Shown piece by piece: positions 1 to 17,899 of a DNA stretch of 64,000 nucleotides. Source of the DNA: Eubacterium sp. (GTDB lineage Bacteria > Bacillota > Clostridia > Lachnospirales > Lachnospiraceae); the NCBI GenBank assembly GCA_017420535.1, contig JAFOIV010000068.1, positions 7,541 to 71,540 of the forward strand, written 5' to 3'. A program made the translations under genes and the position numbers. The notes beneath the pieces were generated by a model, which had not been told where the DNA came from, made no database searches, and worked only from the letters and a program-made list of their open reading frames with translations. Numbering within the stretch: the stretch's first letter is position 1; each line of letters starts with the position of its first letter.

Positions 1-2
1 AA

Positions 3-2393
3 ACAGAAAGAGCTCTCAGTGTTCTGGATTACTGCGTCCTTTTGATCTCTTCATCTGATGGTATAACTGCCCATACAAGAACACTTTTTAATCTTCTTCA
101 GGAATATAATATTCCATGTTTTATCTTTGTTAATAAGATGGATATGGCAGTAAGAAGCAAAGAAGAAATCTTAGAAGAATTAAATGAAAATCTTTCGGCG
201 GGTTTTATAGATATGACTGCTTCGGATGAAGATATTTATGACGAGGCAGCTCTTCTTTCAGAGGAAGCTTTAAATTATTTCCTTGAAACAGGAGCAATCC
301 CGGAGGCTTGTCTTAAAGAACTGATACATAATAGAGAGATGTTTCCGGTATATTTTGGATCAGCATTAAAGGAAATGGGAATAGATTTATTTTTAGATTC
401 TATTTCAGGACTTATTAAAGAAAGAGAATATCCAGAAGAGTTTGGCGCACTGGCCTATAAGATATCAAGGGATAAGGAGAAAAGATTAACCTTTGTAAAA
501 ATTACAGGTGGAAAGATTGCTGTAAAAGATTTAATTTCTGATGATGAAAAGATAAATGAGATAAGAAAATATGATGGGGCTAAATTTGAAATCTTAAAAG
601 AAGCTGTTGCCGGTGATATAGTTGCTCTTATCGGACCTTCAAAAACCTACGCAGGTCAGGGCTTTGGCTATATGCTCGATAAAAGTGAGATTAAGATAAA
701 GCCTGTTTTAAAATATATTTTAAATCTTCCAAATGAGATCAAAGCAAGAGATTTCTTTCCTGAATTAAAAGAACTAGAAGAGGAAGAACCTTTACTGTCT
801 TTATATTGGAATGAAGAAAATGAAACTATTGAAGTTTGCATTATGGGTGAGATCCAACTGCAGATTCTTAAAGCAGTAATAAGTGAGCGTTTTAATATAG
901 ATGTATCATTTGGCGATGGAAAAGTTCTTTATAAAGAGACTATCGTAAATCCTACTTATGGATGCGGGCATTATGAACCTCTTAAACATTATGCAGAAGT
1001 TCATGTGCTTATAGAACCTTTAAAAAGAGGCAGTGGTGTGGTTCTTTCCAATGATGTTACTACAGATGAATTATCTATTAATTATCAAAAAAATATATTA
1101 TCAAATCTTTCAAATACGTGTCTTAGGGGAGTTCTTATAGATGCGCCACTTACAGATGTTAAGATCACTGTATGTGCAGGACGTTCTCATAAGAAACATA
1201 CAGAATCACAGGATATGAGAGAAGCTGTTCTGCGTGCTGTAAGACAGGGCCTTATGAAAACTGAAAGTGTGATCTTAGAGCCATTTTTTAGTTTTGTTAT
1301 AAATCTTCCTCAAAGTGCAGCTGGTCGTGCTCTTACTGATATAGAATTGTTTAATGGTACTGCTGTTATTGAAAATCAGGACAAGGATATTGTTACTATT
1401 GTAGGAAGAGCACCGGTTTCAAAGATAGGTAATTATCAGGGGGAATTGAATACTTATACTCATGGGGCAGGACTTATCAGCTTTAAATATGATGGATATG
1501 ATATATGTAAGGATCAGGATAAAGTTGTTGAAGAGTTTAACTATGACCCGGACAGCGATATGCTTGATTCTGCAGGATCTGTATTTGTTGATCATGGAGC
1601 TGCCATGTTTGTGCCATGGTATATCAGTGATGAATATATGCATATTTATCCTAGATTAGAGAAATATTTTGATATTCCTTGTGATGAAGATGATATGGGT
1701 CATGAAAGTTCAAAAGTCATTCCACTTTCTGAAAGACTAGAAGCTATTGGGACAGATGAGATTGATGATATATTAAATAATATAAACAGAAATAAAAAGA
1801 ATGATCCATTTGAAAATAAGAATCATTTTAAAAGACAGTCCGCTATGCTTAGTTTTAAGAGGACTGCTGTTAAAAAGAAGATTGCAAAATATCTTCTTAT
1901 TGATGGATATAATATAATCCATGCCTGGCCAGAATTAAAAGAATTAACAGAAGATAATATGGATGGCGCGAGAGCAAAACTGCTTGATATGATATGTAAT
2001 TATCAGGCCATAAAAAACGAAGAGATAATTGTTGTATTTGATGCATATAAAGTAAAAGGGCATTTTACTGATGTAATGGATTATCATAATATCCATGTGG
2101 TCTATACTAAAGAGGCTGAAACAGCTGATCAGTATATTGCTAAATTTACGGATCAGAATAAAGATTCTTATGATATAAGAGTTGCTACTTCTGACGGGCT
2201 TATACAGCTGATCATCTTTGGATCTGGGGCAACAAGGGTATCTGCTAATGAGTTTTATCATGAGGTGATGGAGACTACAAAGGAGTTTAGCAGGCAGTTT
2301 ACCAATGTGCATTCAGCGGTTTTAAAAGATGGTATAGAAATGTCAGAAGAAATAATCAGTAAGATAAAGGAGAAAACTGATGGAACTCAGTAG
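3..2393 (+). CDS. 5'-truncated translational GTPase (TetM/TetO/EF-G family) fused to a C-terminal YacP/Rae1-like NYN nuclease domain
   Basis: The reading frame is open from nt 3 (TERALSVLDYCVLLISSSDG), so the gene starts upstream of the window. G4 NKMD (FIFVNKMD) and G5 GSALK are present, with TetM-like collinearity through domain V. The last ~150 aa carry YacP-family motifs: LLIDGYN, VVFDAY, TKEAETADQYI, VATSDG. Confidence 0.75.
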   Translation, partial: TERALSVLDYCVLLISSSDGITAHTRTLFNLLQEYNIPCFIFVNKMDMAVRSKEEILEELNENLSAGFIDMTASDEDIYDEAALLSEEALNYFLETGAIPEACLKELIHNREMFPVYFGSALKEMGIDLFLDSISGLIKEREYPEEFGALAYKISRDKEKRLTFVKITGGKIAVKDLISDDEKINEIRKYDGAKFEILKEAVAGDIVALIGPSKTYAGQGFGYMLDKSEIKIKPVLKYILNLPNEIKARDFFPELKELEEEEPLLSLYWNEENETIEVCIMGEIQLQILKAVISERFNIDVSFGDGKVLYKETIVNPTYGCGHYEPLKHYAEVHVLIEPLKRGSGVVLSNDVTTDELSINYQKNILSNLSNTCLRGVLIDAPLTDVKITVCAGRSHKKHTESQDMREAVLRAVRQGLMKTESVILEPFFSFVINLPQSAAGRALTDIELFNGTAVIENQDKDIVTIVGRAPVSKIGNYQGELNTYTHGAGLISFKYDGYDICKDQDKVVEEFNYDPDSDMLDSAGSVFVDHGAAMFVPWYISDEYMHIYPRLEKYFDIPCDEDDMGHESSKVIPLSERLEAIGTDEIDDILNNINRNKKNDPFENKNHFKRQSAMLSFKRTAVKKKIAKYLLIDGYNIIHAWPELKELTEDNMDGARAKLLDMICNYQAIKNEEIIVVFDAYKVKGHFTDVMDYHNIHVVYTKEAETADQYIAKFTDQNKDSYDIRVATSDGLIQLIIFGSGATRVSANEFYHEVMETTKEFSRQFTNVHSAVLKDGIEMSEEIISKIKEKTDGTQ

Positions 2394-3279
2394 ACGTACC
2401 AGATTAATAAAGAATTTAGTGGCTGATATTAACCAGATGGATAGGTTTACTGACCTTAGATTATCCAGATTTTCTGAGTCAGAGATAGACAGGGTATATA
2501 AATATCCTGATCATATAGATTCAGAGGTGATCGATATGGGGAATTTTAAAATGCTTAGACTTTCCTCAAAAGAAGGTGGATCAGACTGGGTTACATTAAT
2601 GTTTCATGGAGGAGGATACTGCCAGGCTTTCAAGAGAAATTATAATAGAGTTGCAGGCTATTATCATGAAGTTTCCAGGGGAGGCACGGTTTTTGCTGTG
2701 GATTATAGAGTTGCTCCGGAAAATGTATTTCCTGCAGCGCTTGATGATGCTATGGCGGCTTACGACTATCTTATATATGATCTTAATATAGATCCTTCAA
2801 GAATCATTTTATCTGGAGATTCAGCGGGAGGCGGACTTGCTCTTTCGTTAGTTCATGTGCTTCGTTCTCAGTGGAAGAAACTTCCTGCTGGCATTGTTGT
2901 TATGTCGCCTTGGGCAGATCTTACCACTTCAGGACCATCCTATGTAAATAATAAGGAGATTGATCCTGTATTTGGCGGTGGAAATGATGAACTTATATTT
3001 AATAATCCATATCCGGGAGAGACGGATAAAAAGGATATAAGAATATCTCCTTTGTTCGGGGATTTTTCTGGATTTCCGCCTATGCTCGTGCAGGCTGGAT
3101 CTGATGAAATGCTTTTATCCGATTCAGAAGAATTATATTTAAAGGCAAAATCTCAGGGAGTACAGGTAAGATTCACTGTATATCAGGGGATGTTTCATGT
3201 ATTTCAGTTAGGTGGAAAATTAATGGAAGAATCAAAAGAGGCCTGGAGAGAAGTTGGGCGTTTTTATGAATCTTTATAA
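2380..3279 (+). CDS. alpha/beta hydrolase, esterase/lipase of the hormone-sensitive-lipase (Aes-like) type
   Basis: HGGGY oxyanion motif and GDSAGG nucleophile elbow. A late D and H (MFHVF) fit a catalytic triad. The start overlaps the upstream stop by 14 nt. Confidence 0.85.
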   Translation: MELSRRTRLIKNLVADINQMDRFTDLRLSRFSESEIDRVYKYPDHIDSEVIDMGNFKMLRLSSKEGGSDWVTLMFHGGGYCQAFKRNYNRVAGYYHEVSRGGTVFAVDYRVAPENVFPAALDDAMAAYDYLIYDLNIDPSRIILSGDSAGGGLALSLVHVLRSQWKKLPAGIVVMSPWADLTTSGPSYVNNKEIDPVFGGGNDELIFNNPYPGETDKKDIRISPLFGDFSGFPPMLVQAGSDEMLLSDSEELYLKAKSQGVQVRFTVYQGMFHVFQLGGKLMEESKEAWREVGRFYESL

Positions 3280-3293
3280 AACAGGGGTATGAA

Positions 3294-3986
3294 ATGGATA
3301 GAAAGATATTAGTTATAGAAGATGACTTTGCCCTTGCAATGGGACTTAATTATACCTTAAAGGCAGATGGATATCTTACTGATCATGCAAAAAATCTAAA
3401 AGAAGCCAGAGAGTTTCTGCTTAAAGAAAAGAATTATAGTCTTATAATACTTGATGTTATGCTTCCGGATGGAGATGGCTTTTCTTTTCTTGAGGAATTT
3501 ATGCAGATGAATATAGATATTCCTGTAATTTTTTCAACTGCTGTCAGTGATGAAGCAAATATTGTCAGAGGCCTTGATCTTGGGGCTGATGATTATATTA
3601 CGAAACCGTACAGAGTTAAAGAACTTTTAGCCAGAATAGCTGCGGTTATAAGAAGGCATGAAAGGGGAAGAAATAACACTAAAGCCAGTGAGGATTTTAT
3701 TTATTTTGGAGAACATAAGTTTAGTGAATCTTCTTTAAGACTTTATATTGGAGATGAGCTTATAGACTGCACTCCTGCTGAATTAAGATTATTAAGAGAA
3801 TTCCTTAATAATAAGGGAATAGTTCTTACCAGGAATTTACTTATGGAAAGGCTTTATGATACTGAAAATTCGTTTATCGACGATAATACTTTATCAGTAT
3901 ATATTAAGAGGCTTAGAGATAAATTAGGGGAAGATGCTGGATTTATAAAGACAGTAAAAGGTGTAGGATATAGGTTTGGTGAATAA
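3294..3986 (+). CDS. OmpR-family response regulator
   Basis: Receiver motifs (ILVIEDD, LDVMLPDGDG, TKP) plus a winged-helix C-terminus ending VKGVGYRF. Confidence 0.9.
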   Translation: MDRKILVIEDDFALAMGLNYTLKADGYLTDHAKNLKEAREFLLKEKNYSLIILDVMLPDGDGFSFLEEFMQMNIDIPVIFSTAVSDEANIVRGLDLGADDYITKPYRVKELLARIAAVIRRHERGRNNTKASEDFIYFGEHKFSESSLRLYIGDELIDCTPAELRLLREFLNNKGIVLTRNLLMERLYDTENSFIDDNTLSVYIKRLRDKLGEDAGFIKTVKGVGYRFGE

Positions 3987-5044
3987 TGAAAAGTGATTTT
4001 GAGAAAAAAGAGTTTAAATTTTTTAATATAGTGATAGTTGCAATATATCTGGTGATAAATCTTGGCATCATGATCATCTTAAGTTATGTTTCAGATATAT
4101 TTGTAATTGTAATGCTTTGGATACTTTTTTCTATAAATATCATTTCCTTATTGGTCTTATATCTATATTCAAGAAAAATGATATATAAAGCATATTCATC
4201 AGTAGATAAAGCTTCGGATATGATGGAAGCAATCATAAGAGATAATGAAGCAGAAATTATCAAAAATAATGATAATGCTCTGGAAGAAGGAGCCATTGGA
4301 GTTTTATATGATAATTTCGGTAAACTTGTAAATATGTTTAGAGAAGCTAAGAATAAAGAGAAGAAAGAAAAAGAGTATCTTATGAATGTTATGCAGGATA
4401 TATCTCATCAGTTAAAGACGCCTCTTGCTTCAATGAATGTTTTTCTTGATCTTTTAATTGAGAATAAAGTAGATTCTCTGGATGAAAGAAATCTGATCTT
4501 AAAAGAAACAGCAAATCAGGTTAACAGAATGGAATGGATGGTCCTTGCCATGCTGAAACTCGCTCGTATTGAAGCTGGTGCAGTTGAATTTTTGAATGAG
4601 GAATTTAATCTTTATGATGCTCTTTCTGAGGCAAAAAGTGCAGTGGCTTATCTTACTAAAGAAAGAGGTCAGGAGGTTGTGATAGATAGTCCCCCTAAAA
4701 TTATAGTTAAGGGAGATATGCAGTGGATTACAGAAGCATTGATAAATATTATAAAGAATGCTTCAGATTATTCTTATGAAAAGTCAGATAAGATAGATGT
4801 CTCAGTTGAACAAAATAATATATATACGAGAATATATATAAAAGATTATGGAATAGGGATGACTGAAGAAGTTCTTTCTCATATTTTTGAAAGATTTTAC
4901 AGGGCCAGCAATGAAGTAAATCCTAACAGTGTTGGAATAGGTCTTTCACTTTCAAAATCCATAATTGAAAAGCAGGACGGTCGTATCACGGTAAATAGTA
5001 AGGTTAATGAAGGCACTGTATTTACCATCCAGTTAAATAAATAA
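3986..5044 (+). CDS. sensor histidine kinase with an intramembrane-sensing (BceS-like) layout
   Basis: N-terminal hydrophobic helices with almost no extracytoplasmic loop. H-box ISHQLKTPL, N-box NIIKNASDYS, G1 DYGIGM, G2 GIGLSL. Start overlaps the regulator's stop. Confidence 0.88.
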   Translation: MKSDFEKKEFKFFNIVIVAIYLVINLGIMIILSYVSDIFVIVMLWILFSINIISLLVLYLYSRKMIYKAYSSVDKASDMMEAIIRDNEAEIIKNNDNALEEGAIGVLYDNFGKLVNMFREAKNKEKKEKEYLMNVMQDISHQLKTPLASMNVFLDLLIENKVDSLDERNLILKETANQVNRMEWMVLAMLKLARIEAGAVEFLNEEFNLYDALSEAKSAVAYLTKERGQEVVIDSPPKIIVKGDMQWITEALINIIKNASDYSYEKSDKIDVSVEQNNIYTRIYIKDYGIGMTEEVLSHIFERFYRASNEVNPNSVGIGLSLSKSIIEKQDGRITVNSKVNEGTVFTIQLNK

Positions 5045-5049
5045 GATAA

Positions 5050-5090
5050 AAAGGCAATCTTTCAAATTTGTAAGATTGCCTTTTTATTTT
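5050..5090 (+). terminator. rho-independent terminator after the two-component genes
   Basis: Stem aaggcaatctt / aagattgcctt followed by a T-run. Confidence 0.6.
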
Positions 5091-5154
5091 GTCACTTGAT
5101 TGTAAGTCGTGGGTGATAAATTGATAATAGAAAAATGAAAGGAAAGGTATAGTA

Positions 5155-5823
5155 ATGGATAATATCGTTGAAATGAGAAATGTATCTAAGATTTATGGGG
5201 AAAAAGATTCTAAGATACTTGCTCTTCATAATGTAAATCTTGAGATTGAAAGAGGCAGCGTAGTAGCGGTTGTTGGTGCTTCGGGTAGTGGTAAATCTAC
5301 TTTGCTTAATGTAATTGGAGGAGTTGACTATCCATCTGATGGAACCATTATTGTAGATGGTAAAGAGATCACAAGATATAATGATGATGAATTAAGTATA
5401 TTCAGAAGAAGAAAAGTTGGCTTTATATTTCAGGCTTATCATTTAATACCCGTACTTACAGTTGAAGAAAATATCAATCTTCCAGTGCTTCTTGATCATA
5501 GAAAACCTGATAAGGAATATCTGGATCATGTAATAAATCTTTTGGGACTTTCTGATAGAAGAAAACATCTTCCGGGTGAATTATCCGGCGGACAGCAACA
5601 AAGAACAGCCATTGCAAGGGCCCTGGCTAATAATCCTACTTTAATTCTTGCAGATGAACCTACAGGTGCTCTGGATTCTAAAAATGGTAAAGAAGTTATG
5701 GATCTTCTTATGAAATCTGTACATGACCTGGGACAGACTCTTGTTATCATAACTCATAATATGGATCTGGCAAGAGAGGCTGACAGGATAATCAGGATAA
5801 AGGATGGAGAGATTGAGGAGTAG
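5155..5823 (+). CDS. ABC transporter ATP-binding protein (MacB/BceA-like)
   Basis: Walker A GASGSGKST, signature LSGGQQQR, Walker B LILADEPT, H-loop ITHN. Confidence 0.95.
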   Translation: MDNIVEMRNVSKIYGEKDSKILALHNVNLEIERGSVVAVVGASGSGKSTLLNVIGGVDYPSDGTIIVDGKEITRYNDDELSIFRRRKVGFIFQAYHLIPVLTVEENINLPVLLDHRKPDKEYLDHVINLLGLSDRRKHLPGELSGGQQQRTAIARALANNPTLILADEPTGALDSKNGKEVMDLLMKSVHDLGQTLVIITHNMDLAREADRIIRIKDGEIEE

Positions 5824-5832
5824 GGGAAAAAT

Positions 5833-8193
5833 ATGGAGCATTATAAAGAACTTGGAAATAAATATTTCAGACAGAATAAAAAACGGAATATCTTTACGAT
5901 AGTATGTACAGCACTTGTTGTTATCTGTATATTTTCAATACTTAATATTACTTTTAACTGGGTAAGAAATTATAGAAAAGATGTAAGAGGATTTGCTGAT
6001 TATGAAATCCTTATAACTAACGTTGATAAGGAAAAAGCAAAAGAGATTATTGATCAAGAGTTTGTTGAATCTGGATATGTAGGTACTGAAATTACGGGAG
6101 TTAAAGATGATAGAGAACCAATTTTAGAGGATGCATTACATATTAATGTAAAGAATAAATTGCTTATCAACTATTATAGAGATAAGCTTACAAAAGAATA
6201 CGGTGTTAATGCAGAGGTAAATGAAGACCTTGTATGGACATACGGTCAGGATATCGCGCATGAAGGTAATATCATCGTATTACTTGCTGTAATAGTCTCA
6301 TATATCATAACGATAATTGGAGTCGGATACATAAGAAACAGTATGCAATTATCGGCAATTGAAAGAATTAAAGATTATGGAAATTTAAGATGTATAGGCG
6401 CTACTAAAAAAGAGATAAAACAGATCATATTACATGAAGCTTTTATGATCGAAACCATAGGAATTACTATTGGATGTGTTTTAGCATTTGTTTTCAGTTC
6501 TCTGATCAGTTTTAGAAGAGGATATCCAGTTGGTTTTAATTTTCTTCCATTTATAATTGTATTTGCTGAGTTCTATTTTGATCTTTTCTTTATCGTAAGA
6601 GAAAGAATGAAATATATTATAAATCTTTCACCAGTGGAAGCATTAAGTGCAAATATCAAGATAAAGCAGAGCAGACTTAAAAAAAGAGATAGTGGAATAT
6701 GGAAGTTATTATTTGGAATTGAGGGGGATTATGCATATAAGAATTTAAAGAGAAATAATAAAAGAACTTTGAAAACAACATTATCCATAATGTTTGGATT
6801 GGTGGTTATTGTGACTGTAGGAGGCCTTGTTAATGGGTTTCTTAAATACATGAAATTGGTCAATTCACAGTTTGGATATTATCAGGATTATATAATTCCT
6901 AGTAAATATTATAGTTACGTAAGTTTTGAAGAAATAAAATCTTATCTTCCATCAAAGGATAATATGGAAGTGATCAAAAATACAAATGGTATTGGAGAAG
7001 TGAAATATGTTTATGATAATAATATTCTATTAAAACAAAAATCAGATTTATTAAAACATATAAATAAAGAATATTTAAATGAAACCCGCTCCGAATTTGA
7101 TATTCTTAGGAGCCTTGATAAGATTAATGATCCTGACGCTGGAGAATGGTATGAAAGAGTTTATAATCTTTTAGATTTTCAGATTTATGCGTATGATGAA
7201 AATGATTTTAAAAGAAATGAGGAATACCTTATAGATGGAACCTTGGATATATCAGAAAATGGAGTGATCCTGGTTAATTATGGATTGTGTGAAAATCATA
7301 ACAGTTATTATTATGATGGACTTCTTCCTGAAGTGAAAAATTACACATTTACTGATTATAAGGTAGGGGATGAAATAGAAATAGTTGATCCGGTTATCCT
7401 AAGAAACAGAATTGCAGAAGAAGTAAAAGTTGAGGATCAGGAAATTGGTTATCCTGATTACTCGCAGTCTATATCAAATGTGGTTGAGGAATTAAGAGCA
7501 AAGGGATATACAAAGAAACTGGTTATAGAAGGGATTGTGGAGAAAGACGCAAATATTTTTTCTGATGAACCTAAGTTTTTAACAACCACAGACAATTATT
7601 TTAAACTGTTTAAGTGTAATGCTAATGATTATTCTGGATTTATGGTTCATGTAGATAATTGCTTTAATTCGGGATTATCAAAGTTAGATATAGATTACGA
7701 AGGTGATGGTGAAGGGATTGACAGGTACTATTTCAGTTCTTTTATGTCAGGTTATTTTTCTACGGTTCCGGAGATTATAGATAATGTTTTAAAAATAGTT
7801 TCTTTTATAAGTGTTGTTTTTATATTTATATTAATTAATGTTATTAACTCCATAATCATAACAAGAAGTAATCTGCGTATCAGGACAAATGAAATGGCTC
7901 AGTTAAGAGCACTTGGCATGACTAAAAAAAGCTTATATAAAACGGTTATGTTGGAGGGCTTTATAGTTTGGTTTAGAGCTTCACTTATTGGAATTCCTTT
8001 AGGAATATTGGTTCAGCTTTGGCTTTATAATAATATACTTGAATATGTATTTTACATTAAATTTTCTATTGCTATATGGGCTATAGTTTTAGGATTGGTT
8101 TTATCAGCTTTAGCATATATTTATTCTAATTATAAATATGTAAAGAATATGAGGCTTGATGTAGCAAAAGAATTATCATGTGATTCTATTTGA
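5833..8193 (+). CDS. large FtsX-family ABC permease with duplicated TM-ectodomain-3TM architecture
   Basis: Two hydrophobic FtsX-like blocks (about aa 140-260 and 650-780), each preceded by a single TM and a soluble loop. The second loop is ~300 aa. Lies directly downstream of the ATPase gene. Confidence 0.8.
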   Translation: MEHYKELGNKYFRQNKKRNIFTIVCTALVVICIFSILNITFNWVRNYRKDVRGFADYEILITNVDKEKAKEIIDQEFVESGYVGTEITGVKDDREPILEDALHINVKNKLLINYYRDKLTKEYGVNAEVNEDLVWTYGQDIAHEGNIIVLLAVIVSYIITIIGVGYIRNSMQLSAIERIKDYGNLRCIGATKKEIKQIILHEAFMIETIGITIGCVLAFVFSSLISFRRGYPVGFNFLPFIIVFAEFYFDLFFIVRERMKYIINLSPVEALSANIKIKQSRLKKRDSGIWKLLFGIEGDYAYKNLKRNNKRTLKTTLSIMFGLVVIVTVGGLVNGFLKYMKLVNSQFGYYQDYIIPSKYYSYVSFEEIKSYLPSKDNMEVIKNTNGIGEVKYVYDNNILLKQKSDLLKHINKEYLNETRSEFDILRSLDKINDPDAGEWYERVYNLLDFQIYAYDENDFKRNEEYLIDGTLDISENGVILVNYGLCENHNSYYYDGLLPEVKNYTFTDYKVGDEIEIVDPVILRNRIAEEVKVEDQEIGYPDYSQSISNVVEELRAKGYTKKLVIEGIVEKDANIFSDEPKFLTTTDNYFKLFKCNANDYSGFMVHVDNCFNSGLSKLDIDYEGDGEGIDRYYFSSFMSGYFSTVPEIIDNVLKIVSFISVVFIFILINVINSIIITRSNLRIRTNEMAQLRALGMTKKSLYKTVMLEGFIVWFRASLIGIPLGILVQLWLYNNILEYVFYIKFSIAIWAIVLGLVLSALAYIYSNYKYVKNMRLDVAKELSCDSI

Positions 8194-8210
8194 TCATGGG
8201 GGAGGTTAAG

Positions 8211-9152
8211 ATGAAGGCAGAATTTAGGAAAAAAATAAGTATAATAATGACTTTATCAGTACTAATCCTTGGCACATGTGGTTTAATACCTATTAAAGAA
8301 GTTAGTGCTGATACACCAAGACTTATGGTTTCTGATTATTCTATTGATAAAGAAAAAATCTATCCGGGAGATACATTTAAAATAACTTTTACTTTAAAAA
8401 ATAATGCGTTAAACAGGGTTTCTAATATAAAGTGTAAGATTTCATCGGATAATGGTCAGTTTCTTCCGGTAAATAGCCCAGGAACAGCCTATATTGATGA
8501 AATCTATGGAGAGGAAGAAGAGACTCTGTCATTTACATTAAAAGCAGATAAGGGGTTGAAGGAAAATGCTTATAAGATAACAATAAAAACTGAATATGAG
8601 AACTGGAATGGCAGCTATGAAAATGTGGATGAGATCTATATCCCGGTTTCTTATGAAGCAAGAGCAAAGATTTATGGTGCATATATCATAGAGGAAGACA
8701 TACGTCTCGGAGATAATATTGAAATTGTTGCCAGTGTAAATAATATTGGTAATTCTGATATTTATAATGTTGAAGCTGTATGTAAAGGAGATAATATCAC
8801 ACAGACTGATCAGTTTATTGGAACTATTGAGGTTGGAAAAAGTGCAAATATTGATCTCATAACAAAGACTATAGCATTGGGAAGAGGCGACAGGATAAAT
8901 AAGCTGTATGTTAATTATGAAGATAAAGATGGAAATAAATATACAGATGAATATAGACTTGGCGTTTCTGGTGTGATCAATGTAATGGAACAGGATTATT
9001 CGGATATTATCACAGTTAAAGAAGGCCCTGAAAAAAAAGGTGAAGGAACTTGGTATGGTATTATTTTTGGTATTGTAGTTCTTTGTATTGTTCTATTTTT
9101 CATTGTAAGAAGGATTAAATATAAACGCAGAATATCAAAGGAATTTGAATAA
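8211..9152 (+). CDS. secreted, C-terminally membrane-anchored two-domain beta-sandwich protein (CARDB/COG1361-like)
   Basis: ATG at 8211 preceded by the RBS gggggagg. Signal-peptide-like N-terminus, two similar ~130-aa repeats, then a C-terminal TM (WYGIIFGIVVLCIVLFFIV) followed by RRIKYKRR. The family assignment is by resemblance only. Confidence 0.55.
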   Translation: MKAEFRKKISIIMTLSVLILGTCGLIPIKEVSADTPRLMVSDYSIDKEKIYPGDTFKITFTLKNNALNRVSNIKCKISSDNGQFLPVNSPGTAYIDEIYGEEEETLSFTLKADKGLKENAYKITIKTEYENWNGSYENVDEIYIPVSYEARAKIYGAYIIEEDIRLGDNIEIVASVNNIGNSDIYNVEAVCKGDNITQTDQFIGTIEVGKSANIDLITKTIALGRGDRINKLYVNYEDKDGNKYTDEYRLGVSGVINVMEQDYSDIITVKEGPEKKGEGTWYGIIFGIVVLCIVLFFIVRRIKYKRRISKEFE

Positions 9153-10384
9153 TGAAAATGTTTTTAAGGTTAAGTTTTAATCATTTAAAAATTAAAAAGT
9201 TAAGAACATGTCTTACGATCTCGGGGCTGGTCATAGGTGTAATGTCATTAGTTATCATGATATCCATCGGGGAGGGGTATAAAACTGCGGTCCTTGCTGA
9301 ATTAAAAAAGAATAATCCAGGTGTGGATCTATATGTGACAAGTCAGGACAACAGAAGAAAAGACAGGGTGATAACTGATAAAACTATAGAAAAGATCAGT
9401 CAGATGGAAGATGTAGAACAGGTCTTTCCTATGTTGGATGGTTCTGGAACGATGGAACTTAATGGATATTACTATTATGGTCCTGTTTACGGCATAACCA
9501 GAGAATATATGGAGGAATTGGGACTTTCAGAAGGTGAATTTCCTTGTTCAAATGGTCCTAGACCAGAACTTTTATGTGGGGGAGGATTTAAACAGGCTCT
9601 CTTTAGTTCGACAAAAACAGTTAAATATAAGGATTCATCTTCTGGAAAAGAACCTCAGGTTGGGAAAAGATTTACATATGAATCACAGTATAAATTAAGT
9701 GTATCCGGTATTACAGCTGATGAATATGACTATAATATATATACAGATATGGACACATTAAAAATGTTCCTTAAAAGACAGATGGTTGATGGTGCTGTGC
9801 CAAATCAGCCTAAAGATAAGGATGATAAGCCTTATCCTATGTGGGTTTATGATTCTTTGACGGTACGTGTTGATACAATAGAAGATGCAAAAAGAGTCAG
9901 TAATGCTATAAATGAAATGGGATTTATGGTGGATAGTAATATTGAGATTATAGAAGAATCAGAAAATATGATCTCTAAAGTGCAGATAATCCTTGCAGTT
10001 ATAGGCACAGTAGCGGCTATAGTTGCATTTATTGGTATAGTTAATACTATGGTAACAGCGGTATATGACAGGATTAAAGAGATAGGACTCCTTAAAATGA
10101 TAGGTTCAGATTCGGATGATATTGTCTTTATGTTTTTATTTGAATCAGGATTTCTTGGAGCCATAGGTGCAGTGATAGGTGTTGTTTTATCATATCTGTT
10201 AAGTCTTTTTCTTAATCCCAAGTTGGCAAAGCTTATGGAGCTTTCAAAAGGAAGCCGTCTTGTAGGGATAAATTGGAAGATAGCATTAGGTGCAGTTGTA
10301 GTTACCATTATTGTAGCAGTTATAGCTGGTATCATACCTTCGAGAGCGGCAGTAAAAGTAAAACCTCTGGATGCCATAAATTAA
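9152..10384 (+). CDS. MacB-type FtsX-family ABC permease (single module)
   Basis: N-terminal TM, ~230-aa periplasmic-type domain and C-terminal 3-TM FtsX block. Start overlaps the upstream stop. Confidence 0.85.
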   Translation: MKMFLRLSFNHLKIKKLRTCLTISGLVIGVMSLVIMISIGEGYKTAVLAELKKNNPGVDLYVTSQDNRRKDRVITDKTIEKISQMEDVEQVFPMLDGSGTMELNGYYYYGPVYGITREYMEELGLSEGEFPCSNGPRPELLCGGGFKQALFSSTKTVKYKDSSSGKEPQVGKRFTYESQYKLSVSGITADEYDYNIYTDMDTLKMFLKRQMVDGAVPNQPKDKDDKPYPMWVYDSLTVRVDTIEDAKRVSNAINEMGFMVDSNIEIIEESENMISKVQIILAVIGTVAAIVAFIGIVNTMVTAVYDRIKEIGLLKMIGSDSDDIVFMFLFESGFLGAIGAVIGVVLSYLLSLFLNPKLAKLMELSKGSRLVGINWKIALGAVVVTIIVAVIAGIIPSRAAVKVKPLDAIN

Positions 10385-10422
10385 TAATAAGCTAAAATGT
10401 AGCTAAATTATAAAATATATGG

Positions 10423-10779: not shown

Positions 10780-10892
10780 GTGCGAAGCCTAAGGTTCGCG
10801 AGATGTATTTTCAGTTGTGTCACGACTTTCCTTATTTTATAATAATCTATAGAGAAGTTACATACCACGGGGCAATTGATCAGGAGGTTAAC

Positions 10893-13052
10893 ATGTTAGA
10901 TACATATAATATAGAAAATGAAGAAGATAAAAAAAGATCAGAAAGAAAAAATATGATCTTAGAATTCATGTCGGTTCCAAATTATAAGCCGGCAAGATTT
11001 AAAGAACTTTGTTACATTTTTAATGTAAGCGAAGAAGATAGAGATGAATTACTTGTTTGTCTTAACGAGCTTGAAGATGAAGCTCGTATAGTAAAAACAA
11101 AGAACAACAGATATATGCCTATGCCAGAAAATGTTATGGTGGGCACATATATTGGAAATAAGAGAAGTTTTGGTTTCGTTAAGGTTGAAGGTAGAGAAGA
11201 GGATCTTTTTATCCATGATAAGAATTCTCTCAATGCTTTTCATGGGGACACTGTGCTGGTTCAGCTGGATAAGAGAAAGACTGGCCCTAGAACTGAAGCA
11301 AGGATAATAAGGATAATCAAACGTGAGATAACTGAACTTATAGGCATTTTCCAGGCCTGTGACGGTTATGGATTTGTTATTCCTAATAATAAAAAGATAG
11401 CAGATGATATTTTCGTCCCTGAGAAGGCTAGTAAGGGGGCTGTTACTGGTAATATCGTAATAGTTGAGATACGCGACTATGGAAATGATAAGAAGTCTCC
11501 AACAGGTAAGGTTACTGAGATCCTTGGCCATGTTGATGACCCTTCATCAGATATAATCCAGGTAGTCCGTGCTTTAAATATTCCTGAAGAATTCCCTCAG
11601 GATGTGGAAGACCAGTTAAATGAAATTCCTGATACAGTATCTGAAGAAGATAAAAAAGGAAGAAGAGATTTTAGAGATCTTCCAACAGTAACAATAGATG
11701 GAGAAGATGCAAAGGACTTAGATGATGCTATTTCCCTTTCTTTTGAAGATGGGATATATCATCTGGGAGTTCATATTGCGGATGTTTCTCATTATGTAAC
11801 AGAAAATTCTCCTTTGGATAAGGAAGCGCTTAAGAGAGGAACCAGCTGTTATCTTGCTGACAGTGTTATCCCTATGATACCTCATAAGCTTTCAAATGGA
11901 ATTTGCTCCCTTAATCATGATACAGATAGACTTACACTTTCTTGCGTTATGGATATAGACGATAAGGGTAAGATAATTAGTCATGAAGTTTGCGAAGGCC
12001 TTATAAATGTAAATGAGAGAATGAATTATTCTGACGTTTATAAGATCTTGGAAAGAAGTGATGAAGGACTTCTTGAAAGATATAAGGATTTTGTTCCTAT
12101 GTTTGATCTTATGAAGGAACTTTCTCTTAAGCTTAGAAATGTAAGAAAGAAGAGAGGGGCTATAGATTTTGATCTGCCTGAAACAGACATTGTCTGTGAT
12201 GAAAACCATAATCCAATTGATATCAAGCCTCATGAAAGAAATACTGCCACAATGCTTATTGAAGACTTTATGCTGGCGGCAAATGAGACAATAGCCGAGG
12301 ATTATTTCTGGGAAGATATTCCTTTTGAATATCGAATTCATGAATCACCTGATATGGAAAAGGTGGATAAGTTAAAAGTAATGCTTCGTTCTCTTGGAAT
12401 TTTCCTTAAAACAGGAAAAGATAATATCCATCCAAAGGAATTCCAGAAATTGCTTAAGCAGATAGAAGGACTTCCATTTGCTGATATGATAACCAAGGTG
12501 ACTCTTCGAAGCATGCAGCAGGCAAGATATTCAACTGAATGTGAAGGCCATTTTGGACTTGCATGTAAATATTATTGCCATTTTACATCGCCTATCAGAA
12601 GATATCCGGATCTTATGATACACAGGATCATTAAGGAAAATCTTCATGGTACTCTTGATGATAAGAGAAGAAAGCATTATGCAAAAATCCTTCCGGATAT
12701 AGCAGCTGATAATTCTGCAAAGGAAAGAAGAGCGGATGATGCTGAAAGAGATGTTACTAAATTAAAAGAGATCGAATATATGTCAGAACATATAGGTGAA
12801 GTATTTACAGGAAGCATTTCCGGCTTTACTAATATGAATATCTTCGTTGAACTCGATAATACAGTAGAAGGATGCATCAGCCTTGCTTCTATCCGTGATG
12901 ATTTCTACAATTATTTCGAAGATAAATATATGATGGTGGGAGAAAGAACTAAGAAAACTTATGTTCTTGGGGATAAAGTAAAGATAAAAGTTGTAAACTG
13001 TGATAAGATAGACAGGGTTATAGATTTTGAATTTGCAGATGAAGAGGACTAG
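10893..13052 (+). CDS. rnr: ribonuclease R
   Basis: RNB catalytic region (TIDGEDAKDLDDAIS), a C-terminal S1 domain and N-terminal cold-shock-like domains. I prefer the ATG at 10893 (RBS aggagg) over the track start at 10803. Confidence 0.9.
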   Translation: MLDTYNIENEEDKKRSERKNMILEFMSVPNYKPARFKELCYIFNVSEEDRDELLVCLNELEDEARIVKTKNNRYMPMPENVMVGTYIGNKRSFGFVKVEGREEDLFIHDKNSLNAFHGDTVLVQLDKRKTGPRTEARIIRIIKREITELIGIFQACDGYGFVIPNNKKIADDIFVPEKASKGAVTGNIVIVEIRDYGNDKKSPTGKVTEILGHVDDPSSDIIQVVRALNIPEEFPQDVEDQLNEIPDTVSEEDKKGRRDFRDLPTVTIDGEDAKDLDDAISLSFEDGIYHLGVHIADVSHYVTENSPLDKEALKRGTSCYLADSVIPMIPHKLSNGICSLNHDTDRLTLSCVMDIDDKGKIISHEVCEGLINVNERMNYSDVYKILERSDEGLLERYKDFVPMFDLMKELSLKLRNVRKKRGAIDFDLPETDIVCDENHNPIDIKPHERNTATMLIEDFMLAANETIAEDYFWEDIPFEYRIHESPDMEKVDKLKVMLRSLGIFLKTGKDNIHPKEFQKLLKQIEGLPFADMITKVTLRSMQQARYSTECEGHFGLACKYYCHFTSPIRRYPDLMIHRIIKENLHGTLDDKRRKHYAKILPDIAADNSAKERRADDAERDVTKLKEIEYMSEHIGEVFTGSISGFTNMNIFVELDNTVEGCISLASIRDDFYNYFEDKYMMVGERTKKTYVLGDKVKIKVVNCDKIDRVIDFEFADEED

Positions 13053-13056
13053 TTAG

Positions 13057-13524
13057 ATGGCTAAAGATAATTCAGAGAGGCTTATAGCAAATAATAAAAA
13101 GGCTTATCATGACTTTTTTATTGATGAGACCTATGAAGCAGGGCTTTCTCTTGCAGGTACAGAAGTTAAATCTCTTAGAATGGGACAGTGTTCTATAAAG
13201 GAGGCATATGTAGGTATCGAGGATGGAGAGATATATGTATATCATATGCATATAAATCCTTATGAAAGAGGAAATATATTCAATAAGGATCCTCTTAGGA
13301 CCAGAAAACTGCTTATGCATAAAAATGAGATATTGAAATTGTCTCATCAGATTAAGGAAAAAGGCTATACTTTAATGCCATTGAAAGTTTATTTTAAAAA
13401 TGGCAGAGTGAAGATTCAGATTGGCCTTGCCCGTGGTAAGAAAAATTATGATAAGCGTGAAGATATCAAAAAGAGAGATCAGCAGCGTGAAGCTGAGAAA
13501 GATTTTAAAATCAGCTTAAGATAA
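13057..13524 (+). CDS. smpB: SsrA-binding protein SmpB
   Basis: [13 protein letters not shown] and GTEVKSLR motifs, 155 aa, lying upstream of the tmRNA. Confidence 0.95.
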
Positions 13525-13970: not shown

Positions 13971-14318
13971 GGGGTTGTACAGGTTTCGACAGGGATTTAG
14001 AGATTCCGGCAGCTATCCGTGGACCCGAGACCACGTTAAAACTTGGAAAAAAATAAACGCTGAAGATAATTTAGCACTCGCTGCCTAATTAGGCAGCTGT
14101 CAGTTCTTTTGTAATCCGCGGCATTAGAAACTGGCATCAAACTAGCGGAGAACTTTCTTCCCAAAGCTTTGAGGGCGGGAAAGAATATATGAAGCTACTG
14201 AAACAGTAAGCCTGTCTTTTGGCGTACTACGTAGGGAATTTTAAATAATAGACTGTGATAGGAGACACCTGAATTAAAGAGTCTTTGGACGCGGGTTCGA
14301 TTCCCGCCAGCTCCACTA
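13971..14318 (+). ncRNA. ssrA: tmRNA (SsrA)
   Basis: 5' GGGGTTGTACAGGTTTCGACAGGG. 3' tRNA-like end GGACGCGGGTTCGATTCCCGCCAGCTCCA. The acceptor stem pairs GGGGUUG with CAGCUCC. Tag reading frame GCT GAA GAT AAT TTA GCA CTC GCT GCC TAA at 14059-14088 encodes ...AEDNLALAA. Confidence 0.9.
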
Positions 14319-15168: not shown

Positions 15169-16695
15169 GTGTCACTTACAAAAAATGAGAAGATGAAACT
15201 TATCATTTGGACTTTGGTACTTCTGGCGGCTCACCTGTATCCGGGTATAGAATTAACTAAGTATAGATCCTGGGGAATGCCTCAGATATTTTATATTTTG
15301 CTGCTTTTTTTATGGAGTGCAAGTTTAAATATGAGGCTGGTTGGAAAAAAGACTAAAAGGCTTTTCTTTCAGCTTACTCTTTTCATGGTTATCCTCATGT
15401 TAGTCCAGATGATAAAATATAACTTTTGCCGTAAACCTGTGTATTGCAGGTATCTTTGGTATACCTATTATCTGCCTATTGTTTCTGTACCCATTACATG
15501 TTTTAGGATCGTATGTTCAATAGGGGAACCAGAAGAAGGAAAAAATAAGAAGAGTCATCTCTTATGGATTCCAAGTGCAATATTCATTTTGATCGTTCTA
15601 ACAAACGACTTTCATCAAAAGGTTTTTTATTTTAAAAATGGTCTTTTGGATTTTAATAACTATGATCATAAGCTTTTTTATTATATTATCCTTATTTGGG
15701 CTTTTTTCTTTATTTTTGCTACATTTATAATGATTATTTTTAAATGTCCTATAAAGATAAAAAAGACCAGCTTTATCTTGCCTTTTATGCCAATAGTTCT
15801 TTATTTTATCTACATGGTGTTCTACAACAAATATCATATTATGTTTGATGAGCTCCCTATAAAAATACATTTTCAGCAAGCCATGCTTTTAACCCTGATA
15901 CTTTTCTGGGAAGCCTGCATTAAGCTTGGCATAATAAGGACAAATAAGAAACATAAGGATTATCTTGAAGTAACAGGGCTTGATTTTACCATCATTGATA
16001 AAAAAGGTTCTATTATATTTACCGACAATGGTTTAGATGAAGAACTGATCAGATTAAGATCAGGGGAGTATGTAAATGAAACAAAGATCATTAGAAAAAA
16101 TTATCTGAAGGCTGGTCAGATAGTCTGGCTGGAGGATGTTTCAAGCCTGGTGGAGGCAAAAAAAGAATTAGAAAAGATTAAAGTGGAATTAAAAAAAGAA
16201 GAGGAAATCCTTAGATCTGAAAATGAAGTTAAAGAGATCAAGGCCAGAAATGAAACTAAGAATTATATCTATGATAAGATATATCTTTCTTTATCTAAAG
16301 AGAGAGATGATATATTAAATATCTTACATAATAAAGATTTGGATAGGGAAAGTATTAAGTATATTGCTCTTAAAGGTACCTATATCAAGAGATGGTCGAA
16401 TCTTAAGATCATTGCAGAAGACTTAAAGAATAAGGGCTTCGATACAGTTTCTATTCAGGAACTATATTATGCCATTAAGGAATCTTTAGATCAGCTGGAT
16501 TTTTATGATATTAGTTATGAAATATCTGGTTTTGAAGATCCTTACTTAATAAAGTTCGATGAATTACTTGAGATCTATAAAGATTTTGAGAAAAAGTTAG
16601 AGGGCCTTTTAGAGGGGGACTCAAAAATTAGTGTGAGTCTCCTTAGAGATGATAAGGGATCAAAGTTAGTTTTAGAGGGAGGCAGTTATGCTTAA
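15169..16695 (+). CDS. polytopic membrane protein (about 7 TM, resembling the histidine-kinase N-terminal 7TM domain) with a coiled-coil cytoplasmic tail and no kinase motifs
   Basis: About 250 aa of hydrophobic helices, then a charged coiled coil (EAKKELEKIKVELKKEEEILRSENEVKEIKARNE). I found no H-box or ATPase boxes. The stop overlaps the next gene's start by 8 nt. Confidence 0.6.
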   Translation: MSLTKNEKMKLIIWTLVLLAAHLYPGIELTKYRSWGMPQIFYILLLFLWSASLNMRLVGKKTKRLFFQLTLFMVILMLVQMIKYNFCRKPVYCRYLWYTYYLPIVSVPITCFRIVCSIGEPEEGKNKKSHLLWIPSAIFILIVLTNDFHQKVFYFKNGLLDFNNYDHKLFYYIILIWAFFFIFATFIMIIFKCPIKIKKTSFILPFMPIVLYFIYMVFYNKYHIMFDELPIKIHFQQAMLLTLILFWEACIKLGIIRTNKKHKDYLEVTGLDFTIIDKKGSIIFTDNGLDEELIRLRSGEYVNETKIIRKNYLKAGQIVWLEDVSSLVEAKKELEKIKVELKKEEEILRSENEVKEIKARNETKNYIYDKIYLSLSKERDDILNILHNKDLDRESIKYIALKGTYIKRWSNLKIIAEDLKNKGFDTVSIQELYYAIKESLDQLDFYDISYEISGFEDPYLIKFDELLEIYKDFEKKLEGLLEGDSKISVSLLRDDKGSKLVLEGGSYA

Positions 16696-17899
16696 ATTTA
16701 TAGAGCATTTTTTAATGCTCCTTTGTCTTCTTATATTCTGGGGCGAAGGTTATCTTTGCTATAGGATCATTAAGGAAAGACAAAAAAAGAATAAAGCTGT
16801 ATTGTCTATCGGAATTTGTGTCATTTTATTTGTAACATTTCAGTATGTAAAGAATGTAGGCGATATAAGGCTTTTATCCTCAGCCGGCAGTATGTGCTTA
16901 AAACTAATGATGTTTATTATACTTTTAGTATTCATAGTCCAGGTGATCGGTGAGAACAAATGGAATAAGGAACATATCTCTGACTTTTCCATAGAAGAAG
17001 GTTTGGATAGTCTTCCTGTTGGAATAGCGGTTTATTCTTCTTTAAATGGAATGCCGATATTGGTAAATGCCATTGCTGATAAGGTTTCTATGAGACTATT
17101 TGGTAACACACTTATAAATGGACTTAAGTTTAATCAGGAATACCATGAGTATATAAAAGGCTGTAAAGAAGAACTTCTTCATATGGATGATCATCTTTAT
17201 ATGCTGACTGAAAATAAACTGAGGATAGATGATACTGAATATATAGAGCTTTTATTTTATGATATCAAGGATGTCCATGAAATTAATGAAAAGATCCATA
17301 AAGATAATGAGATAATCAAAAAGCTTAATGAAAGACTGAGAGCTTTAAACCGAAGGATAAATGACTTATCAGTTGAAACAGAGCTTATCAATATCAAATC
17401 TAAGGTTCATGATGATCTTGGGGAAGCATTGACTATCACTAGAAATTATTTAAAACAAAATGAGCCGGAGATAAATAAAAACAAGTTGTTTACTTTATGG
17501 CTTGATAGACTTGACTTCATGAAGTCTGTATCCGAAAATAAAAAGAAGGATGAGTATCAGAATCTATTTTCGGCGGCGAAGGATGTGGGAGTTGATATTG
17601 TAATAAATGGTGAACTTCCGGATAAGCAGCCTGCTAAACAGATATGTTCCATGGCAATACATGAGTGTCTTACTAATACTATAAGACATGCCAAGGGAGA
17701 TAAAGTATATGTTGAGACTCATTTCGAAAATGATGATAAATTCATAATAAAGATTACAAATAATGGATATCCTCCACTGGGGAAGATAAAAGAAAGTGGT
17801 GGACTTGCTAACCTTAGATCTATTGTTGAGATGGCAGGTGCCAGTATGGATATTTCTACTGATGTAGTTTTTTTACTTACAATATGTATATATTATTAA
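16688..17899 (+). CDS. membrane sensor histidine kinase, HisKA_3 (NarX/LiaS-like) type
   Basis: N-terminal TM helices. H-box KVHDDLGEALT, N-box HECLTNTIRHA, G-box region ITNNGYP...GGLANLRSIVEMAGA. Confidence 0.75.
   Translation: MLKFIEHFLMLLCLLIFWGEGYLCYRIIKERQKKNKAVLSIGICVILFVTFQYVKNVGDIRLLSSAGSMCLKLMMFIILLVFIVQVIGENKWNKEHISDFSIEEGLDSLPVGIAVYSSLNGMPILVNAIADKVSMRLFGNTLINGLKFNQEYHEYIKGCKEELLHMDDHLYMLTENKLRIDDTEYIELLFYDIKDVHEINEKIHKDNEIIKKLNERLRALNRRINDLSVETELINIKSKVHDDLGEALTITRNYLKQNEPEINKNKLFTLWLDRLDFMKSVSENKKKDEYQNLFSAAKDVGVDIVINGELPDKQPAKQICSMAIHECLTNTIRHAKGDKVYVETHFENDDKFIIKITNNGYPPLGKIKESGGLANLRSIVEMAGASMDISTDVVFLLTICIYY

Follow-up and report, generated by a model that had tools for sequence, protein, structure and literature searches.

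Fusions between a translational GTPase and a nuclease domain have been described in Clostridia. Atkinson reported in 2015 that Tet (tetracycline resistance) proteins of ten Clostridiales species acquired a YacP-like NYN domain, and suggested testing the fusions for rRNA RNase activity (BMC Genomics 16:78, PMC4342817); the sequences in Additional file 8 of that paper include those of Ruminococcus albus 7, Eubacterium eligens, and Clostridium cellulolyticum H10. Matelska et al. (2017) mentioned "TetM-NYN_YacP fusion proteins" in some Clostridia and regarded their role as unclear (NAR 45:6995, PMC5499597). In the present study, we analysed a gene of this kind at the left edge of a 64,000-nucleotide stretch of DNA from Eubacterium sp. 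(Lachnospiraceae; GenBank assembly GCA_017420535.1, contig JAFOIV010000068.1, positions 7,541 to 71,540 of the forward strand), which is called the window below. We found that the gene encodes an EF-G/TetM-type translational GTPase and a Rae1-type NYN nuclease domain in one polypeptide. The architecture is identical to that of the published fusions (a Tet-like GTPase, then a C-terminal NYN_YacP domain, in a clostridial host) and has been catalogued since at least 2015, which answers a question that the original prediction, made without database searches, had left open. Our analysis adds that the family is large and vertically inherited, that the public naming of some members appears to be wrong, that a conserved extension module and a tether helix lie between the two parts, and that the rationale based on the ribosomal A site has to be updated.

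The nuclease part is related to Rae1 (YacP) of Bacillus subtilis. Rae1 cleaves mRNA in a way that depends on translation, at ribosomes that have stalled or collided, and feeds trans-translation (PMC12407103; PMC13622287), and a 2026 preprint shows that Rae1 generates transfer-messenger RNA (tmRNA) substrates on collided ribosomes (PMC13622287). The stand-alone yacP gene of B. subtilis lies in the order gltX-cysS-mrnC-yacO-yacP (PMC5499597). Rae1 consists of about 170 amino acid residues (aa), is encoded beside rlmB (yacO), and finds stalled or collided ribosomes unaided. The models of how it recognises them were revised in 2025-26. In the widespread natural fusion, a flexible tether would hold a Rae1-type domain at the factor-binding site of the ribosome, which would make the protein a ready experimental system.

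The open reading frame (ORF) of the fusion runs off the left edge of the window without any internal stop codon, as originally described, and about 89 codons of the N-terminal part lie beyond the edge. The missing part was covered by two close relatives. One is the closest protein, P0001, which is 885 aa long and 98% identical to the window product; the other is a contig from a metagenome-assembled genome (MAG) of a rumen Lachnospiraceae (CADANF010000008.1, referred to as L005), whose DNA is 98.5% identical to window positions 1-10387. The full-length protein thus has about 880-885 residues. In P0001, G1 (AHVDAGKTT), G2 (RGIT), and G3 (DTPGH) are all intact, in agreement with the expectation for the region upstream of the window. 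The motifs quoted in the original prediction were all found at the places given there: NKMD and GSALK in the G domain (Table 1), and LLIDGYN (aa 631, nt 1893), VVFDAY (aa 677, nt 2031), ETADQYI (aa 706, nt 2118), and VATSDG (aa 727, nt 2181) in the nuclease domain.

Pfam searches with the window product gave the domain boundaries listed in Table 1. The matches to EF-G_D2 and EFG_III were under the Pfam gathering score, and the assignment of domains II and III rests on the AlphaFold2 (AF2) model and its Foldseek match to EF-G. The AF2 model of P0001 has a mean predicted local distance difference test score (pLDDT) of 80.6 and contains five EF-G-like domains; its top Foldseek matches were ribosome-bound EF-G structures (E ~1e-52).

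The C-terminal domain gave a strong match to NYN_YacP (PF05991), at a bit score well over the gathering score (Table 1), and profile positions 1-162 of 166 were matched. A phmmer alignment to B. subtilis Rae1 (PDB 5MQ9) extended over residues 3-162 (E = 5e-28), and the identity was 39-45% over the entire Rae1 length. When compared with 5MQ9, the AF2 model of the domain gave template modelling (TM) scores of 0.76-0.78; in the case of chain 5MQ9_B, the TM score was 0.76 with a root mean square deviation of 1.8 Å over 143 columns at 39% identity. Three Rae1 chains were the only PDB matches with E < 1e-3 for the NYN model in the Foldseek search. Four Asp residues of the window product (D634, D680, D709, and D731; D723, D769, D798, and D820 in P0001) are equivalent to D7, D53, D81, and D104 of Rae1, with the Rae1 numbering counted from the alignment. 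Conservation was studied in two alignments, of 82 proteins derived from loci and of 120 database proteins, and all four Asp residues are invariant in both, which speaks in favour of the original prediction. The nuclease looks competent, as far as an intact active site can tell. The domain shares the full-length fold, the four Asp residues, and the long C-terminal helix with Rae1 (5MQ8/5MQ9). It is a Rae1-type domain and not a canonical Rae1 orthologue: it forms the C-terminal part of a protein of about 885 aa, is attached by a covalent tether to a GTPase of the factor site, and is encoded elsewhere, outside the rlmB(yacO)-yacP operon.

The GTPase motifs G1, G2, G3, G4 (NKxD), and G5 are conserved in the fusion family; G1, G3, G4, and G5 are invariant or nearly so in both alignments. 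DTPGH, including the catalytic His, occurs in all sequences (82/82 and 120/120), and NKMD in 81/82 and 114/120; the remainder keep NKxD, with one NRMD exception. The GTPase, too, looks competent by its sequence. Two motifs at the basic tip of domain IV, GHFEPLRHYAEV and G[RK]AHxKHTEGGDFR, are near-invariant in the 82 and the 120 sequences, which argues that contact with the decoding centre is functional.

The closest characterised relatives of the GTPase by score are TetO and TetM (E ~1e-71). It shares with TetM/TetO (3J9Y, 4V6V) a collinear five-domain EF-G-like layout with intact G motifs, as in the Tet protection proteins generally. However, the identity to TetM is 29-30%, against 39-45% to sister GTPases that have no NYN domain (39-41%, with the 45% maximum obtained from the family member P0036), and the fusion has a longer and different C-terminal extension. 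The best NCBIfam model was tet_protect (NF012153), for which P0001 reached 384 bits, where the cut-off is 775. The TetM/W model gave 275 bits (cut-off 1100), and the EF-G equivalog TIGR00484 gave 256 bits, also below the threshold (659). In Tet proteins, the loops at the tip of domain IV contact and dislodge tetracycline (PMC4342817). In every member of the fusion family, the YYSPVS stretch of TetM domain IV is replaced by RSHKKHT or RAHxKHT. By the tests available, the GTPase is thus Tet-related but is not a TetM-type tetracycline protection protein. Of the earlier designation as a TetM/EF-G-type GTPase, the EF-G/Tet-type series of domains from G to V stands, and the identification with TetM does not.

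Stand-alone sister GTPases (P0203, P0255, P0259, and P0263) are full-length proteins of 636-663 aa without the NYN domain. They carry the G[RK]AHxKHTEGGDFR loop and end in the same C-terminal module as the GTPase part of the fusion. Judged from these sequences, the GTPase of the fusion belongs to a Tet-related subfamily of its own, to which the nuclease was added, and the NYN-less proteins are the likely parent of the fusion.

The region that separates domain V from the NYN domain had been described as a charged linker of about 120 aa. A disordered, charged tether is indeed present (aa ~559-626 of the window product; residues 648-715 of P0001 have pLDDT < 50), but the first ~50 residues of the region (aa ~506-556; P0001 ~595-645) form a conserved module with pLDDT ~80-90, and the tether itself contains a helix. 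In the predicted model, the extension module consists of a beta-hairpin plus short helices. Its motif in the fusion is SVFxxHGAxxxVPWxxxxxYMHI (also written SVFxxHGAGxxVxWxxVxxYMH), and that in the NYN-less sisters is SVFCxHGxGxxVPWxxxxxxMHI. The module had no Pfam match and no PDB counterpart by Foldseek. Across the family, the tether is 63-136 aa long, with fractions of about 0.2 for Lys plus Arg and about 0.18 for Asp plus Glu. The helix within it was predicted at residues 674-685 of P0001 and again in a second model. It is amphipathic with the family pattern (D/E)E(I/L)(D/E)xI(L/F)xxT(F/Y), and E675 and I679 (P0001 numbering) are invariant in the 120 sequences; no Pfam or PDB counterpart of the helix was found. 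One protein of 719 aa, P0136, stops right past the tether helix without an NYN domain, as a truncation or a true variant. Its end point hints that the helix is functionally part of the GTPase side. The helix may be a latch or an element for docking on the ribosome.

Table 1. Features of the fusion gene and its product, followed by neighbouring genes in the window (residue numbers refer to the window product)
Feature	Position (nt)	Residues (aa)	Strand	Basis
Whole fusion ORF	3..2393		+	796 codons + stop; 5' end beyond left window edge
G domain, C-terminal part, with reduced G' insertion	6..416		+	Pfam GTP_EFTU; G1-G3 upstream of window
GTP_EFTU (partial)		2-138		Pfam, E = 1.6e-17
G4 NKMD	132-143	44	+	Motif check
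G5 GSALK	357-371	119	+	Motif check
EF-G-type domains II + III	462..914		+	Pfam, AF2 model, Foldseek
EF-G_D2		154-217		Pfam
EFG_III		234-304		Pfam
EF-G-type domain IV	918..1262		+	Pfam EFG_IV
EFG_IV		306-420		Pfam, E = 7.7e-15
Domain IV tip loop AGRSHKKHTESQDMR	1176-1220		+	Alignment to TetM/TetO; TetM has GLYYSPVSTPADFR there
EF-G-type domain V	1272..1517		+	Pfam EFG_C
EFG_C		424-505		Pfam, E = 3.7e-13
GTPase C-terminal extension, conserved, folded	1518..1670		+	Conservation, pLDDT ~80-90
Tether, disordered, charged, of variable length	1677..1880		+	pLDDT < 50 at P0001 residues 648-715
Amphipathic helix in tether GTDEIDDILNNINR	1749..1790	583-596	+	Conservation, two structure models
Rae1/YacP-type NYN domain, including long C-terminal helix	1893..2369		+	Pfam, Rae1 alignment, model fold
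NYN_YacP		631-789		Pfam, E = 1.5e-49, 168.6 bits vs gathering score 24.6
Catalytic-type Asp codons	1902-1904, 2040-2042, 2127-2129, 2193-2195		+	Rae1 alignment, conservation
Alpha/beta-hydrolase gene	2380..3279		+	Abhydrolase_3, E = 4.6e-45; start overlaps last 14 nt of fusion ORF
RNase R (RNB, CSD2, OB_RNB, S1)	10803-13052		+	Trans-translation cluster
SmpB	13057-13524		+	Trans-translation cluster
tmRNA (ssrA)	13971-14318		+	Rfam RF00023, 176 bits

The family is far larger than the ten species reported by Atkinson. A protein search over 5.8 billion sequences gave thousands of matches, of which the best 120 were studied; these are all 847-977 aa long, and each contains the GTPase plus PF05991. 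At least 262 relatives were confirmed among species representatives when one genome per GTDB species was scanned with narrow peptide patterns only. In addition, a query with the linker alone against 1.84 billion cluster representatives (50% identity; E <= 1e-3) gave 269 clusters. Short matches of about 300 aa in the linker search either begin at a Met that is conserved in domain V or have no start, and are contig-edge fragments rather than split genes.

For the analysis of loci, we used 80 of the 262 relatives and three loci from assemblies. A single unbroken ORF of 803-945 aa extended from the GTPase through the NYN domain in all 83 loci, whose independent assemblies include isolate genomes, and none had a split version; the expectation of one gene in homologues instead of two was thus borne out. 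Clostridia make up the overwhelming majority of the hosts (Lachnospiraceae, Eubacterium, Butyrivibrio, Pseudobutyrivibrio, Ruminococcus, and Oscillospiraceae), and a few hosts are Erysipelotrichales. Sequence divergence follows taxonomy: the identity was 98, 89, and 74% in close syntenic relatives, and then 48% or less. Together with the synteny, this pattern argues for a vertically inherited housekeeping gene and not a mobile resistance gene. We conclude that the fusion is real and under selection, that it is common in gut and rumen Clostridia, and that the copy in the window is an ordinary orthologue of a rumen Lachnospiraceae genome.

The most probable reading of these sequences is that the GTPase guides the nuclease to the ribosome, as the original prediction proposed. 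We suggest a ribosome-surveillance nuclease in a single polypeptide, in which GTP-dependent docking at the factor site would tether the nuclease to stalled ribosomes so that the mRNA is cut, and we give this model a probability of about 0.45. The GTP form would dock at the ribosomal factor-binding site and place domain IV in the decoding centre of a ribosome that does not progress. Docking would bring the tethered NYN domain to a higher local concentration, and this domain could then cut the mRNA at a point that is exposed to solvent on the stalled or collided complex. The factor would afterwards be released by GTP hydrolysis, and the truncated mRNA would pass to tmRNA/SmpB and RNase R. The fusion would thus do the same job as free Rae1 with a GTP-gated ribosome-targeting module of its own.

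The place of the cut deserves comment. The original prediction assumed that Rae1 cuts at the A site, next to the site at which the GTPase docks, but according to work from 2025-26, Rae1 cuts at the tail of ribosomes that have stalled or collided, about 12 nt upstream of the A-site codon; the argument from the neighbourhood of the two sites therefore has no weight any more. Geometry suggests another arrangement. The NYN domain of about 18 kDa could not act at the A site while domain IV occupies it, and a disordered tether of about 70-80 residues would be long enough to bridge the several tens of angstroms up to the mRNA entry channel. When two ribosomes form a disome, the trailing one would be expected to have its entry channel near the tail end of the leading one, which is the reported cut site of free Rae1.

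Several observations weigh against this model. The NYN domain made no confident contact with the GTPase in the AF2 model, and full-text searches of open-access papers and preprints found no biochemical or genetic study of any fusion member. In the other 83 loci, neither rnr nor smpB was present within 8 kb, and a linkage to smpB, ssrA, or rnr is not conserved. Furthermore, NYN-less sister GTPases exist, so that the GTPase module should have a function of its own that needs no nuclease. More tentatively, the fusion could be a self-contained no-go-decay device of bacteria, in which the conserved basic tip of domain IV reads the state of the decoding centre and licenses the NYN domain only on a non-progressing or collided ribosome, with GTP hydrolysis timing the release. 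If so, it would be the first case in which a translational GTPase delivers, in cis, a nuclease for mRNA surveillance, and it would provide a natural means of studying at which place and in what way Rae1-type domains engage ribosomes.

E. coli SmrB and yeast Cue2 are mRNA nucleases that sense collisions or stalls, and Hbs1-Dom34 (Pelota) is a rescue pair delivered by a GTPase. They resemble the fusion in function only, in that a ribosome which does not progress receives a nuclease or rescue factor, in the Hbs1 case through delivery by a translational GTPase. The SMR nuclease folds of SmrB and Cue2 are unrelated to NYN, and in these systems delivery is non-covalent or relies on domains that bind ubiquitin or on N-terminal hook domains, with no EF-G-type factor in cis.

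Other explanations of the gene have to be compared with the surveillance model. That two separate genes were joined by a frameshift, assembly, or gene-calling artefact has a negligible chance and can be ruled out: beyond the general possibility of such errors in MAG-derived sequence, the same ORF was continuous in 83 independent assemblies and in 120 protein clusters from several databases, and conserved motifs lie inside the junction region itself. A more serious alternative, which we nevertheless regard as unlikely, is a nuclease for ribosome maturation or quality control that cuts 16S or 23S rRNA, with the EF-G-like module test-driving ribosomes or recognising immature or damaged ones. Nob1 is a eukaryotic PIN nuclease that acts in eIF5B-dependent 80S-like particles. 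The fusion would resemble this case by analogy, and the idea is close to the rRNA RNase suggestion of Atkinson (PMC4342817). Stand-alone yacP occurs in rRNA/tRNA-processing operons, beside rlmB in C. difficile and Listeria (plasmid-collection records) and likewise in B. subtilis (PMC5499597), and rsmH (MraW) and gltX flank the fusion gene in one relative (L084). However, all substrates of Rae1 shown experimentally so far are mRNAs whose cleavage depends on translation, no rRNA-processing gene was a conserved neighbour of the fusion in the 83 loci, and the near-invariant tip of domain IV fits engagement of the mature decoding centre.

Protection against tetracycline or another A-site antibiotic, with the nuclease as a second resistance step as hypothesised by Atkinson in 2015, appears improbable. 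It is favoured by the close relationship to TetO/TetM, by tet_protect as the best NCBIfam model, and by the naming of members as TetM/TetW/TetO/TetS family in some sources, NCBI among them. The score of about half the cut-off, the higher identity to the NYN-less sisters than to TetM, and the replaced YYSPVS loop all argue against it, as do the chromosomal syntenic context, the divergence that tracks taxonomy, and the chromosome-like nature of those matches in phage and plasmid collections that were inspected or could be judged from their annotation; inheritance appears to be vertical rather than mobile. A still smaller chance is left for a toxin or an anti-phage abortive-infection effector that cuts RNA on ribosomes, a role the original prediction had considered. 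NYN/PIN nucleases and look-alikes of translational GTPases do occur in defence systems. However, PADLOC gave only a 20.8-bit match of the G domain to LeoBC, no conserved neighbour in the 83 loci would qualify as an antitoxin or a sensor, the surroundings of the gene are a region of core genes, and the phage-collection record that was inspected is an unverified bacterial contig. A defence system was thus rejected: there was no meaningful PADLOC match, no conserved partner gene, and no mobile-element context.

The classification also bears on public annotation. Members P0036, P0108, P0112, and H14 are publicly named as tetracycline resistance proteins, and they score about half of the NCBIfam cut-off and have no Tet domain IV loop. 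Our sequence comparison argues that this naming is wrong. Should the name be adopted in resistome surveys of gut and rumen metagenomes, false positives would inflate the counts of tetracycline resistance.

The fusion gene lies in a chromosomal, housekeeping setting of core genes. In the lineage of the window, the upstream order is gap-pgk-tpi-mscL and then the fusion gene. In L005, the intergenic region 5' of the fusion gene (about 120 nt) contains only a terminator-like hairpin after mscL, and an Rfam search of the entire window gave only the tmRNA and one tRNA, and nothing relevant to the fusion gene. The overlap with the alpha/beta-hydrolase gene downstream (Table 1) suggests that the two genes are co-transcribed in this lineage; the hydrolase is a neighbour in only 5 of the 83 loci, so it is not a conserved partner. 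When three neighbours on each side were clustered in the 83 loci, no conserved operon partner was found. The largest neighbour cluster was present in 14 loci and lay on the opposite strand; the neighbours in clusters were AsnB, DpaA/B, NrdD/G, and MatE. In the window, rnr-smpB-ssrA lies 8-12 kb downstream of the fusion gene on the same strand. This is suggestive in view of the reported pathway from Rae1 to tmRNA, but as the linkage is absent from the other loci, we treat it as a coincidence.

Carriage by a phage or a plasmid was rejected, as the inspected phage record and the plasmid matches were judged to be chromosome-like. The phage-collection record, that of the L084 locus (MT835514.1, 'Bacteriophage sp.', UNVERIFIED; positions 1-37798), is a fragment of a bacterial chromosome that carries AddAB, subtilase, FeoB, RsmH, the GTPase-NYN gene, GltX, glycerol kinase, and others. 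The matches in the plasmid collection appear to be chromosome-like large records or stand-alone yacP beside rlmB, as judged from record size and annotation only.

Other genes lie further downstream on the same strand of the window. The region 3294-10384 (+) encodes an OmpR-type response regulator, a small histidine kinase, an ABC ATPase, a 786-aa double-FtsX permease, a CARDB protein, and a MacB-like permease. Its layout resembles modules for the sensing and detoxification of peptide antibiotics, and it is conserved only in the closest relatives. At 16688-17899 (+), an ORF of 403 aa with no Pfam match at E <= 1e-5 sits between a seven-transmembrane (7TM)-type sensor, which itself has only a weak HisKA_7TM match, and a LuxR-type response regulator.

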